The notes under the pieces are model-generated. The model had not been told where the DNA came from, did no database searches, and saw only the letters and a list, made by a program, of their open reading frames with translations. Positions 1,847-42,912 of a DNA stretch of 64,000 nucleotides are shown here, piece by piece (positions within the stretch are counted from its first letter, which is position 1; every line of letters starts with the position of its first letter). Both the position numbers and the translations under genes were made by a program. Location: NCBI RefSeq assembly GCF_003334765.1, contig NZ_QOWT01000001.1; one strand, given 5' to 3'. The stretch is from Escherichia coli. GTDB lineage: Bacteria > Pseudomonadota > Gammaproteobacteria > Enterobacterales > Enterobacteriaceae.

Positions 1847-2998
1847 TTATTTGTTCTGATAGTCTTTCAGGATCTGCCGACCTGCTACGTAAATCATAAT
1901 TTCGTCTGTACCGCCGCCGATACGTTCACAACGGACATCACGCCAGAAGCGGGAGACGCGCGCCTCATCGGTATAGCCCAGACCGCCCATGATTTGAATC
2001 GCATCATCAATGACTTCCATTGCGGTACGTGCACAGTACAGTTTTGCCAGCGCCGCGCTGGTGCGCAGTGACTGATGCTGATCGGCTTGCCATGCCACTT
2101 TCAGCACCATGTTGCGCATGTTGTCGATCTTAATCGCCATCAGCGCCAGTTTTTCCTGGATCATCTGGTTATGACCAATGGGCTTACCAAAAGCGATACG
2201 TTGGTTGGCATAGCGGGCGGCATCTTCAAAGGCGCATTCGGCAAAGCCGGTGCTGCGCGCGGCGTTGATCAGGCGCTCCATCTCAAAGTTGTACATCACA
2301 TTGAGGAAACCCATTCCTTCTTCGCCCACCATGTCGCTCTCTTCAACCTCCACGTTGTCGAGATAGACTTCGCAGGTGCTGAGCATATGCCAGCCGATTT
2401 TATGCAGCGGGTTAATCTTAATGCCGGGCTTACTGGAGTCGACCCACCACAGGGTGAAGGCTTTTTTGGGATCTTTCGGTTGCGGATCGCGCGCCAGCAC
2501 CAGCATATACGGGTACTCTTTCGCACCGGTAATAAAGGTTTTTTGTCCGTTGATGTAGACCTTGCCGTTTTTACGCGTGTAAGTGGTAGTGGCACTGTTG
2601 TTATCTGAGCCAGCACCTGGTTCCGTCAACGCCAGGGCATAGGCGGGATCACCCGTTTCCAGGGTGCTCTCTGCCGTTTTACGTAGCTGCTCTGCAGAAC
2701 CGAAACGGCGCATACTGTGAATACATTGACCGTTGGTAATTAAAAATGCCGGAGCACCGCATTTTGACACTTCCATCAGCGCCAGCATTTGGGTGACGTA
2801 ATCCGCAGGGATACCACCAAATTCTTCCGGCACGCCAAGCATGGAAATACCGTTATCCGCCAGCGCCCGCATAAACTCACGCGGATATGTCCCGTTTTGA
2901 TCGCAGGTGCGGAAATACTCTTCCGGAAAGTTAGTCGTAATCAGTTCGCGAATACTGGCCAGCAGCAGTTCTTGTTCTTCAGTTAAAGAAAAATCCAT
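1847..2998 (-). CDS. ydiO: Acyl-CoA dehydrogenase family protein
   Basis: ORF track gives 401 aa; the likely true start is the internal MDFSLTEEQELL… Met (383 aa). Acyl-CoA dehydrogenase-like sequence throughout. Confidence 0.85.
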   Translation of the reverse strand: MDFSLTEEQELLLASIRELITTNFPEEYFRTCDQNGTYPREFMRALADNGISMLGVPEEFGGIPADYVTQMLALMEVSKCGAPAFLITNGQCIHSMRRFGSAEQLRKTAESTLETGDPAYALALTEPGAGSDNNSATTTYTRKNGKVYINGQKTFITGAKEYPYMLVLARDPQPKDPKKAFTLWWVDSSKPGIKINPLHKIGWHMLSTCEVYLDNVEVEESDMVGEEGMGFLNVMYNFEMERLINAARSTGFAECAFEDAARYANQRIAFGKPIGHNQMIQEKLALMAIKIDNMRNMVLKVAWQADQHQSLRTSAALAKLYCARTAMEVIDDAIQIMGGLGYTDEARVSRFWRDVRCERIGGGTDEIMIYVAGRQILKDYQNK

Positions 2999-3011
2999 CA
3001 TTATACTCCTG

Positions 3012-4607
3012 TTAATGAGCCGCTTCAGGCAGGACAAAACCCATCGCCGCATCGATAAATAATCTTTCGTCCATCAGTTTGAGTTCTGGCGAAATCACTG
3101 GGGTGAAATCCATTTTGTCGAGAATATCTTTTTGTAAATCGACGCCAGGGGCGATTTCGATTAAATGCAGGCCGTCTTCTTTCAGCGTGAATACTGCGCG
3201 CTCAGTGATATAACGAACATCCAGCCCTCGCTCGAGAGCGATTTTTCCGCTGAAAGTAATTTCCGGTAGTTCCCGAATAAATTTCTTCACCCGTCCTTCC
3301 TGGACGATATTTAATTTGCCGTCGGTAATTTCTGTTTTTAAACTGCCCGCAGTTAATGTGCCGCAGAAAATGATTTTCTTCGAAGTGGCACTGATATCAA
3401 TAAATCCACCGGTGCCCATGATTTTACCATTGAATTTATGCACGCCGACGTTACCGTGCTGGTCGACTTCAGCAAAACTCAAATAACAAACATCCAGACC
3501 GCCACCGTGATAAAAATCAAACTGGGACGTCATATCCAGAATGGCACGGGTATTCACGTTCGCGCCAAAGGCGATCCCCTGTGAAGTAATTCCGCCAATC
3601 GGACCTGTTTCTACCGTCAGAATAAAGTCATCAGCACAACCTTCTTCTCGGGCGACCAGGCCAATGCCGTCAGCAATACCGACGCCGACATTCCCCACCG
3701 CGCCTTTACGCATTTCGAATAATGCGCGCCGCGCAACTAATTTACGTTGGTTTAGGGGCAGGCTAAGTTTGGTACTGTCATCAAGGGTGAAGTCACCAGA
3801 AATAAAGCGGTTAACCGGTGCACCGCCATACAGTTGGGTTTGATCCGGATCGACCACCACAATATCCACCAGATAACCCGGAATACGGACAGATTTAGGA
3901 TGCAGCGTGGCTTTCTTAACCATTTTCTGCACCTGCATCATCACAATACCGCCGTTATTGTGCACCGCCTGGGCAATAACCAATGCGTCGAGATACATCA
4001 CCTCATCTTCAAAAGTGGCGTAGCCTTCACTGTCGCAGGTGGTAGCGCGAATGAAGGCAATATCTGGCGCAATCGCTTTGTAATAGAGATATTCTTTGTT
4101 ATCAAACTCGACCAGTTTAATCAGGTCTTCTTTAGTGACTTCATTCAGTTTGCCGCCTTGCTGGCGTGGATCGACAAATGTCCCGATGCCAATATCACTA
4201 ATAATACCAGGCTGGTGGGCTGCGGCGGCGCGTAAGGTTTGTGTAAGTACACCTTGTGGGTAGTTATAAGCAATAATTTTATTTTGTTCTGCGAGTTCAG
4301 AAATACGCGGCGATTGTCCCCAGTGACCACATAATGCCCATTTCACCAGACCTTCTTGCGCCAGAGGACTAATACCACGGTCGGCGCGATCGCCAAGCCC
4401 TGTTGGACTAATAATCGATAAATTACGTGGTGTTTGAGTCTGTTTATATTTATCAGCAAGAGCAGTAATTAACGTGGTGGCTTCCAGAATACCGCCTCCA
4501 GCGCCTAACACACAAAGTGTTGCTTCGTCGGGAATATAATTCACCGCTTCCTGTGCCGACAGGACCGGCACTCGTCCATTAATACGAGGTGGTTTTACAG
4601 GTTTCAT
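3012..4607 (-). CDS. ydiF: Family I CoA-transferase (acetate/short-chain acyl-CoA transferase, fused alpha/beta)
   Basis: 531-aa ORF that I recognise as E. coli YdiF; immediately upstream of ydiO on the same strand. Confidence 0.85.
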   Translation of the reverse strand: MKPVKPPRINGRVPVLSAQEAVNYIPDEATLCVLGAGGGILEATTLITALADKYKQTQTPRNLSIISPTGLGDRADRGISPLAQEGLVKWALCGHWGQSPRISELAEQNKIIAYNYPQGVLTQTLRAAAAHQPGIISDIGIGTFVDPRQQGGKLNEVTKEDLIKLVEFDNKEYLYYKAIAPDIAFIRATTCDSEGYATFEDEVMYLDALVIAQAVHNNGGIVMMQVQKMVKKATLHPKSVRIPGYLVDIVVVDPDQTQLYGGAPVNRFISGDFTLDDSTKLSLPLNQRKLVARRALFEMRKGAVGNVGVGIADGIGLVAREEGCADDFILTVETGPIGGITSQGIAFGANVNTRAILDMTSQFDFYHGGGLDVCYLSFAEVDQHGNVGVHKFNGKIMGTGGFIDISATSKKIIFCGTLTAGSLKTEITDGKLNIVQEGRVKKFIRELPEITFSGKIALERGLDVRYITERAVFTLKEDGLHLIEIAPGVDLQKDILDKMDFTPVISPELKLMDERLFIDAAMGFVLPEAAH

Positions 4608-9579: not shown

Positions 9580-9717
9580 CGTGTAATGGCTGCATGAAAT
9601 AAACAATAAAATATAAATAACATTATCAGCCTGCTGACGGCTTGAAGAGAGTCACAGTATCTTGTGCAACATTATTGGAAAGAGTGAGGGGCGAGGTAGC
9701 GAAGCGGAAAAATGTTA

Positions 9718-9822
9718 AAAAAAAGCCCATCGTGGGAGATGGGCAAAGACTACACACAGCAATTCGTTGTTTCACTCAGGGGATTTCCATGCTTATAAAT
9801 CAATATGTTGATTTATAACCGT
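9718..9822 (-). ncRNA. rprA: RprA small regulatory RNA (Hfq-dependent activator of rpoS translation)
   Basis: Plus strand reads AAAAAAAAGCCCATCGTGGGAGATGGGCAAAGACTACACACAGCAATTCGTTGTTTCACTCAGGGGATTTCCATGCTTATAAATCAATATGTTGATTTATAACCGT, the reverse complement of the RprA sequence as I remember it, including the terminator hairpin and U-tail. Confidence 0.8.
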
Positions 9823-10007
9823 GAGCTAATAGTAGGCATACGGACTTTTTGCGTCGATCAGATTCGTCTCATTAGTTTAAAAACTGTAAAGAATTTGCGA
9901 CAGGTACTACCAGCTGAATGGCGGTAAGCAGGAAAATATGGGGAAGAGCAAGCAAATATCAATTAGCGGTGGTTAACAATCAGGCGGCAGAGCCGCCTGA
10001 TGAGAAA

Positions 10008-15260: not shown

Positions 15261-15461
15261 TCCTGACTTAATGCCGCAAGTTCGCCAAATCGACCTGGAT
15301 TAACCTCCGTCCAGGTTCGATGACCTTCTTAATACTGCTTATCTACCGCCTGATATTGTTCAAAAATAATACTAATCGCAGTTTGTGTTAAAACGGCGGG
15401 TTAGCTTTATGAGATTATTCTTATCGCCCCTTCAAGAGCTAAGCCACTGAGAGTGCCGGAG

Positions 15462-15529
15462 ATAAGCGCCGGATGGGGTAGAAACCCTTAAGCCTGTGTC
15501 GCACAGACTTAAGGGTTTTCTTATTTCTG
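15462..15529 (+). ncRNA. Candidate small RNA (possibly RydB) or intrinsic terminator; extent and strand uncertain
   Basis: Perfect 11-bp stem AAACCCTTAAG (15483-15493) / CTTAAGGGTTT (15509-15519) followed by a T-rich tract. RydB is reported in the ydiH-sufA intergenic region, but I could not confirm its sequence from memory. Confidence 0.3.
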
Positions 15530-42359: not shown

Positions 42360-42402
42360 TCCATTTCACTCCAGACCCTAACTTCAGCTCCTGCAAAATC
42401 GC

Positions 42403-42418
42403 AAGGTAAACGTTTGCC
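42403..42418. promoter_or_regulatory. PurR operator (PUR box) in the purR leader
   Basis: Minus-strand reading GGCAAACGTTTACCTT matches the PUR-box core (ACGCAAACGTTTTCNT); purR autoregulation is established. Confidence 0.55.
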
Positions 42419-42657
42419 TTTACACACCTTACGCACAACAAAAGTGTTGCGGTACGCCGGAAAAACGACACGGAGCGTCAGGAAGGGGTCAATGGCCAGT
42501 ACGCAAATAGTGTAAGCGTGGAATTTTGGCCGATCTTGACGAAAAGGGGAAGTGGTAAAAACACTTATCATTATAAATGACGGGAGATTTTTTCATCACA
42601 GTGTGTAAAAATGCGTAATATCACTTTTTGTGTGGTAATAAAAAAGGAGAAAACTTG

Positions 42658-42747
42658 ATGAGCACCGACCTTAAATTTTCACTGGTAACAACGATTATCG
42701 TCCTCGGTTTGATCGTAGCCGTGGGTTTGACTGCCGCGCTGCACTGA
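42658..42747 (+). CDS. ynhF: Small single-TM membrane protein (29 aa)
   Basis: ATG…TGA encodes MSTDLKFSLVTTIIVLGLIVAVGLTAALH, preceded by a GGAGA RBS; below the ORF-track size cut-off. Confidence 0.7.
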   Translation: MSTDLKFSLVTTIIVLGLIVAVGLTAALH

Positions 42748-42912
42748 TTTCCTCTCGAGGGAGCGCGTTCTCCCTCGCATCTCCTTCCTGTTTGTTAGCA
42801 AAATGGCAAAAGTGTTTTCTCTTTTTGTTATTTTCATTTTTTTGTGATTGCTGTCATGCTTTCGCCACTTTAATGAATATCGCGTAATGACGCGAAGAGG
42901 TGGAGATAAGGC

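Follow-up and report, generated by a model that had tools for sequence, protein, structure and literature searches.

The question raised by positions 9718-9822 of this Escherichia coli DNA is whether the minus strand carries there a complete copy of the small RNA gene rprA, or whether what looks like one is a decayed remnant or a mere part of its neighbours. We addressed it in the whole stretch of 64,000 nucleotides (hereafter, the window), the first 25 kb of which are E. coli chromosome, with a 100% match to several isolates.

Identity, place and integrity of rprA

The covariance-model search that the initial annotation had suggested as a check, run on the window against all Rfam families at curated thresholds, returned a full-length match to the RprA model RF00034 at 9822..9715 on the minus strand (model positions 1-108 of 108, 118.5 bits compared with a gathering threshold of 70 bits, E = 1.6e-16), with zero base pairs flagged as non-canonical. 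The 105 nt at 9718-9822 read ACGGTTATAAATCAAC...GATGGGCTTTTTTT on the minus strand, with GATGGGC and eight T at the 3' end; since this end lies inside the run of 8 T (9717-9724), annotated ends fall at 9718, 9717 or 9715 and annotated lengths at 105, 106 or 108 nt. The same gene is annotated in K-12 MG1655 as the ncRNA rprA b4431 (1770372-1770477, corresponding to window 9822-9717): sequence, promoter, terminator and neighbours are identical, and only the annotated 3' end varies (105-108 nt). In a three-way alignment, the 451 bp between the ydiK stop and the ydiL start were 100% identical in the window, K-12 MG1655 and one O157:H7 genome. The claim of a full 105-nt RprA on the minus strand was thus borne out. 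Disruption of the rpoS-pairing region or of the terminator by substitutions had been named beforehand as a sign against an intact gene, but relative to K-12 neither has any, the window RprA being identical to the K-12 RNA. Its placement between ydiK and ydiL agrees with the open reading frame list and with the K-12 and O157 annotations: the gene order in K-12 MG1655 is ydiJ, ydiK, rprA, ydiL, ydiM, the order in the O157:H7 genome is identical, and in the window rprA follows ydiK with no change of strand, ydiK lying upstream in Klebsiella too (Table 1).

Table 1. Coordinates of rprA, of its neighbours and elements, and of other features discussed in the text (window positions unless a locus is named)
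Feature	Coordinates	Strand	Basis or remark
rprA (RprA sRNA, 105 nt)	9718..9822	-	RF00034 full model and 100% identity to K-12 b4431
ydiK, upstream neighbour, AI-2E family transporter, 370 aa	10008..11120	-	ORF list and K-12/O157 annotation
ydiL, downstream neighbour, DUF1870 protein, 118 aa	9223..9579	-	ORF list; coordinates transferred from K-12 annotation
RcsB box TGAGACGAATCTGA	9858..9871	-	-49 to -36 relative to +1; fits TN(G/A)GAN4TC(T/C)NA
Weak -35-like element TCGACG (4/6), abuts RcsB box	9852..9857	-	-35 to -30; read from sequence
-10 hexamer TACTAT	9829..9834	-	-12 to -7; read from sequence; near-invariant across species
5' stem-loop, RprA nt 3-32	9791..9820	-	MFE and centroid folds; first helix of Rfam consensus
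Central mostly single-stranded region, nt 34-72, rpoS-complementary	9751..9789	-	best duplex with rpoS leader
RprAproc region, last 47 nt	9718..9764	-	coordinates derived from 105-nt transcript
Invariant 18-mer ATTGCTGTGTGTAGTCTT, RprA nt 60-77	9746..9763	-	single exact match in window
Rho-independent terminator, 7-bp stem GCCCATC/GATGGGC (9725-9744) and 8 T (9717-9724)	9717..9744	-	scan, fold, last Rfam helix
Overlapping small ORF, 49 aa	9626-9775	-	ORF list
Overlapping small ORF, 58 aa	9642-9818	+	ORF list
HPnc0260 match / tandem tRNA-Val(GAC) regions	33487-33649 and 33611-33768	+ and -	Rfam
Multi-hairpin domain, L008	3867-4001		
Multi-hairpin domain, L003	3878-4008		
Multi-hairpin domain, L132 (phage SopranoGao)	~2505-2632		
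Multi-hairpin domain, L133 (phage D6)	~3004-3117		

At the level of the species, a megablast search of complete E. coli genomes with a 401 bp query found the rprA region in 5424 of 5426, nearly always in one copy and with at least 99% identity in 5347 records; the gene was uninterrupted in 5409 of the 5426 genomes, and among the full-length matches listed the feature annotated beneath was rprA every time. No evidence against an intact rprA was found in the sequence. As judged from sequence, the feature is almost certainly the chromosomal E. coli rprA, intact and in its normal place; its 5' hairpin, rpoS-pairing middle and terminator with U-tail show no change, so there is no hint that function has been lost. 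It is an already known gene, in an ordinary copy that had been correctly recognised.

The initial annotation had further counted rprA as the second regulatory RNA locus in the window. An RNA locus it is, but the "second" does not stand, since Rfam also gives rydB, STnc550 and two tRNA genes. The match to rydB lies at 15426-15486 (+) with 81.6 bits (threshold 50). A perfect match to the RcsB-box pattern discussed below, TGAGATTATTCTTA at 15410-15423 (+), stops 2 nt short of the rydB start given by Rfam, too near for an activator site of the -42 type serving that start, and it may be a chance match (about 2 are expected per window) or belong to another promoter. STnc550, at 42360-42750 (+), is the strongest Rfam match in the window (396.5 bits); its 3' part holds a 29-codon open reading frame at 42658-42747 (MSTDLKFSLVTTIIVLGLIVAVGLTAALH), which we take to be ynhF, so that this "sRNA" family largely covers the leader and the coding region of a small membrane protein. 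Finally, HPnc0260, a Helicobacter antisense RNA family, gave a match of 112 bits that overlaps, on the opposite strand, tRNA-Val(GAC), the first of two in tandem; the well-aligned part is the reverse complement of the tRNA, and the match looks like an artefact of the family model and not like a real antisense RNA.

Promoter, RNA anatomy and pairing with rpoS

The +1 of rprA is an A at 9822 on the minus strand, and its -35 and -10 hexamers, separated by a 17-bp spacer, hold 8 of 12 consensus positions, below the promoter scan cut-off of 9, which fits an activator-dependent promoter. The candidate activator site is the 14-mer centred near -42 (Table 1): inspection of the RcsB box, also suggested beforehand, showed that it matches the published, structurally defined consensus of the RcsB homodimer box, TN(G/A)GAN4TC(T/C)NA (PMC7913699). 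RcsB has been crystallised on a Salmonella rprA promoter fragment spanning -53 to -33, CCTATTGAGACGAATCTGATCGG (PMC7913699), and the 21 nt around the window box differ from the natural core of this Salmonella PrprA oligonucleotide by one base, which does not belong to the box. Across the window the pattern shows no enrichment (3 matches compared with 2.2 expected), and its count was dropped as a statistical signal; since a motif count alone proves nothing, the case for the box is built on where it lies and on how well it is conserved among species. The RcsB-dependent promoter had been expected in an AT-rich stretch at about 9823-9900. The promoter itself is supported, as a prediction from the box at -49 to -36 and the elements that follow it, but these elements occupy only 9829-9871, and the stretch is only moderately AT-rich (37% G+C compared with 50% window-wide).

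The 105 nt fold into a 5' hairpin (nt 3-32), an open middle and a terminator, at -25.8 kcal/mol and in agreement with the Rfam consensus structure, with a modest z of -2.26 relative to dinucleotide shuffles. The terminator scan gave one site in the rprA region, and the terminator with its U-tail forms a putative Hfq-binding 3' module. RNase E cuts RprA, recognising an RprA stem-loop, and the 5' hairpin has been proposed as the duplex-recognition element (PMC6202311); RprAproc, the last 47 nt, coexists with full-length RprA and is still able to regulate narP (PMC9262595); ricI in Salmonella and a narP +1..+50 fusion (PMC9262595) are reporters to which RprAproc has a known effect. On the 105-nt transcript RprAproc starts at nt 59, which puts the 18-mer at its 5' end, the typical place of a seed. 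Both the invariant 3' half (GAAUUGCUGUGUGUAGUCUUUGCCC) and the Rho-independent terminator with a long U-tail are present in the window rprA.

To follow the locus across species independently of the RNA, one genome per species was scanned with the 19-mer TGAGASGAATCTGATCGAC, which consists of the RcsB box and the five following bases. The scan gave 68 loci, 63 of them in enterobacterial species with the RNA at the same spacing; the other five were discarded as chance matches, in unrelated bacteria and with no RprA downstream. The 63 species include Escherichia, Salmonella, Citrobacter, Klebsiella, Enterobacter, Kosakonia, Leclercia and Lelliottia, and also Kluyvera, Trabulsiella, Yokenella, Franconibacter, Siccibacter, Phytobacter and relatives. 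Aligned together with the window copy (64 sequences, all mutually different), they have a near-invariant -10 hexamer and +1, a variable 5' hairpin loop and promoter spacer, and a 100% invariant GAATTGCTGTGTGTAGTCTTTGCCC; the 18-mer is likewise invariant in these 64 unique enterobacterial sequences.

Because rpoS lies outside the window, its pairing with RprA was assessed with the K-12 rpoS leader (~570 nt). A whole-length RNAduplex run of RprA with a 573-nt leader gave -57.3 compared with a shuffle mean of -55.1, with 84 of 300 shuffles at least as good; this 180-nt duplex is unphysical, and the run was replaced by a windowed search in which RprA nt 31-78 were compared with 40-nt windows slid along the leader. 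The best duplex over all leader windows joins RprA nt 34-72 to rpoS -134..-95 at -30.5 kcal/mol, and its blocks AACGAAUU/AAUUCGUU and CCCCU/AGGGG are visible by eye. As the whole-molecule duplex is no better than shuffles, the case for pairing rests on this restricted search together with published genetics. The rpoS region -134..-95 is the upstream arm of the self-inhibitory leader hairpin, which RprA, DsrA and ArcZ open, as reportedly described by Majdalani et al. in 2002 and summarised in PMC6202311. Of the three RNAs, DsrA is controlled by low temperature, ArcZ by ArcAB/aerobiosis and RprA by Rcs. DsrA and ArcZ resemble RprA as Hfq-dependent activators of rpoS translation that open the ribosome-binding site by pairing with the 5'-proximal, upstream arm of this hairpin (PMC3783183). 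Unlike RprA, they are absent from the window, and their sequences are unrelated to it.

The identity, intactness, synteny and conservation of rprA, and the presence of all of its sequence elements, are established here at the level of sequence, and the mechanism is that of the literature on the identical sequence. Transcription would start at 9822 (-), from a weak sigma-70 promoter turned on at -49..-36 by RcsB once the Rcs envelope-stress phosphorelay has phosphorylated it. The product would be a ~105-nt Hfq-dependent RNA in which a single-stranded middle lies between a 5' hairpin and a terminator with U-tail, and this middle would pair with the upstream arm of the rpoS inhibitory hairpin, thereby freeing the ribosome-binding site and leading to more sigma-S. 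RprA would also repress csgD, dgcM (ydaM), hdeD and narP and activate ricI in Salmonella, and RNase E would generate a stable 47-nt 3' form that keeps the invariant 18 nt at its 5' end and some regulatory activity. Strong Rcs control of RprA, activation of rpoS and ricI, and repression of csgD, dgcM/ydaM, hdeD and narP have been described (PMC9262595), and Hfq-bound, Rcs-induced RNAs of ~105 and ~47 nt are known for the identical K-12 sequence (PMC9262595, PMC6202311).

Could the locus nevertheless be a decayed remnant, a pseudo-sRNA that has lost its transcription or its ability to pair? A covariance-model match is in principle no proof of expression, but nothing else that would support decay was found, and with zero substitutions relative to the studied K-12 gene over promoter, RNA and terminator, all functional elements in place and strong conservation in 63 species, we regard it as extraordinarily improbable. 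Hardly better placed, and still very improbable, is the idea that there is no independent gene here and that the 105 nt belong to the 3' UTR of ydiK, to the 5' UTR of ydiL or to a small overlapping open reading frame. It can draw on the fact that ydiK, rprA and ydiL all lie on the same strand, on the overlapping frames in the mechanical list, and on a hairpin just past the ydiK stop that is followed by no T-run, which makes read-through from ydiK possible. Yet rprA has its own promoter elements, among them an RcsB box conserved at a constant distance, and, ahead of ydiL, a strong terminator of its own; Klebsiella keeps the RNA although there rprA is followed by ppsA and not by ydiL; conservation tracks the RNA structure and the seed, without codon periodicity; and the overlapping frames are of a kind that any 100-nt stretch gives. 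An intact rprA that is a gene in its own right is the reading that we carry forward.

The RprA 18-mer in phages and plasmids

Plasmid records searched with the rprA region gave matches of two kinds. The first are short, cover just the RprA 3' half and lie on replicons that resemble phages: Enterobacter and E. coli phage-plasmids of the P1 type, a Klebsiella quasipneumoniae lambdoid circle of 44 kb and Citrobacter plasmids of ~97 kb, with copies that score 47-63 bits with RF00034, below 70; the P1-like plasmids NZ_CP085744.1 and NZ_CP074151.1 carry the 18-mer. The second are five Klebsiella pneumoniae "plasmids" (NZ_CP079158.1 and four similar ones), which carry the chromosomal ydiJ-ydiK-rprA-ppsA-ppsR-aroH and are probably chromosome that was wrongly assembled or labelled; their full rprA was rejected as a mobile copy, these being ydiJ-ydiK-rprA-ppsA chromosome pieces filed as plasmids. 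In a scan of IMG/VR, the 18-mer was exact in at least 120 viral contigs, and among the matches listed none is the chromosomal rprA. The 45 nt upstream of it and the hairpin downstream differ widely among the contigs listed, and a stable hairpin with a T-run follows it directly in 115 of 142 unique contexts. The loci related to the 18-mer are numbered L003, L006-L010, L011-L130, L134-L213, L282 and L283.

Circularity was avoided by gathering 80 prophage loci via a neighbouring DUF2303-like protein (82-100% identical), 76 of them with enough upstream sequence. At position -620 to -686 of these 76, the 18-mer was exact in 22 and had one mismatch in 21, two or three in 8 and four or five in 13, with no match in 12; its flanks were unrelated, and the conserved core was GCTGTGTG(T/A)AGT(C/T)TT. 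In the Klebsiella element a promoter, TTGACC-17-TAGATT, lies ~330 nt upstream of the 18-mer and overlaps operator-like repeats that recur between the cro-like and cI-like genes; promoter and repeats together place the 18-mer in a long untranslated leader of the early-left operon. The 18-mer also occurs in the deposited genomes of highly dissimilar phages: in virulent N4-like phages of Erwinia (in Ea9-2 just after the thymidylate synthase gene), in virulent jumbo phages of Erwinia and Dickeya, in Cronobacter phiES15, Citrobacter rodentium phiNP and an Stx1c phage, and in Rac-SA53 between a DicA-like repressor gene and kilR. More broadly, its place in lambdoid prophages is that of dicF, in the early-left leader and downstream of a cI/dicA-like repressor gene.

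The early-operon position of DicF (RF00039), downstream of a CI/DicA-like repressor gene, is thus the place of many phage copies of the 18-mer. RNase E generates the 5' end of DicF by cutting the dicBF operon transcript, and a terminator sets the 3' end (PMC5069750), so that DicF and RprAproc are alike as short RNAs with an RNase E 5' end and a terminator 3' end (PMC5069750, PMC9262595). They differ in their seeds (UUCUGGUGACAUUU in DicF, UUGCUGUGUGUAGUCUU in RprA), and DicF lacks both the RcsB promoter and the 58-nt 5' extension of the chromosomal rprA; the Rfam scan of the window at gathering thresholds assigned rprA to RprA and listed no DicF match. Among 131 unique phage contexts, the terminator stem was of the DicF type GGCGG (GGCGG...CCGCC) in 61 and of the RprA type GCCC in 44. 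In one locus, L044, the DicF model is matched through the hairpin at 54.7 bits (threshold 48), with the RprA 18-mer in the place of the DicF seed (UUCUGGUGAC), and directly downstream lie an STnc100-like domain (41.8 bits compared with 47), isrK and C4 RNA.

In about half of the phage copies a multi-hairpin domain of 113-140 nt precedes the 18-mer (Table 1). It has the framework GUGGUGAAU...CACCGGGAGGCACCCGGCACCA in common with STnc100 / PasD (RF02076), which are structured sRNAs encoded by prophages, and it shows a closing helix UUGUGGU/RCCACAA with one compensatory change and a covarying last hairpin GGUGG/CCGGG/GGGGG-AGGCA-complement, whose loop is AGGCA. The STnc100 model itself stays below threshold, at 41.8 of the 47 bits in L044 and with no match in L008, and a MAFFT/RNAalifold consensus built for the phage domain yielded no more than the closing helix and a single hairpin, since its variable arms do not align properly. 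Unrelated phages, among them Klebsiella Lastavirus phages and the P1-like D6, have the domain but not the 18-mer next to it; the window has no such domain, and chromosomal rprA has nothing like the STnc100 domain. Reading the domain upstream of the 18-mer as tRNA-like held only in part, for two Citrobacter plasmids in which the Rfam tRNA model matches at 32.5 bits; elsewhere it is STnc100-like. As a separate observation, tRNA-like genes of ~128 nt, with canonical D- and T-arms and a large insertion in the middle, occur at L009 3872-3999, in L010, at L003 4362-4488 and at L006 4354-4480; they score 27-32 bits with the Rfam tRNA model, PGAP calls one of them "tRNA-Met" (129 nt) and ARAGORN calls none. 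On the Citrobacter plasmids, one such gene lies directly upstream of the RprA-like module.

We also considered that the 3' halves of RprA on phages and plasmids could be attP sites of elements whose integration target is rprA. For most copies this was rejected, the 18-mer being followed by highly diverse terminators; P1-like plasmids do not integrate, and the chromosomal gene is uninterrupted in nearly all E. coli genomes (5409/5426). A search for targets of the 18-mer inside phages found 70 complementary 9-mers or longer in its flanks compared with 69.9 in shuffled controls, and RNAduplex paired the 18-mer with the 24 nt behind the T-run no better than with a control window. An ACACA(A/G)C-like motif, missing from chromosomal rprA, follows the T-run within ~12 nt in 42% of phage copies compared with 0.4% in the background (for example, at L008 4051-4060 and in L026). 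It is complementary to UGYUGUGU inside the 18-mer, and the pair would bracket the terminator if transcription reads through. A search of literature full text for "RprA-like" phage RNAs or for the motif, whose scope left out most subscription-journal papers and figure-only sequences, gave nothing relevant, and a preprint on Pas/STnc100 does not mention the link to the 18-mer.

Significance for the Rcs/RprA regulon

For the locus itself, the result amounts to the correct annotation of a textbook sRNA and to no new biology; it confirms that in this genome an RNA still connects the Rcs envelope-stress pathway to the general stress sigma factor RpoS and to the control of biofilms. We consider it possible, although on balance rather doubtful, that the invariant 3' module of RprA (18-nt seed and terminator) is one of many short RNA modules that phages carry, with terminator hairpins that are interchangeable. 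The most economical reading of the comparisons would be that processed sRNAs of the DicF type, in which seeds can be swapped, lie in lambdoid early-operon leaders, and that the RprA seed is one common seed among these. We infer that such modules could be produced and could act on the targets of RprA. If they are expressed and processed like DicF, they would be mimics of processed RprA, tapping or competing with the host Rcs/RprA regulon. Conversely, rprA may have originated by fusion of a phage module to an RcsB-controlled 5' domain. If true, the seed of a core-genome sRNA would be tied to a widespread mobile RNA module, with phages that imitate a processed host regulator, and rprA would offer a concrete case of core sRNAs assembled from mobile parts.
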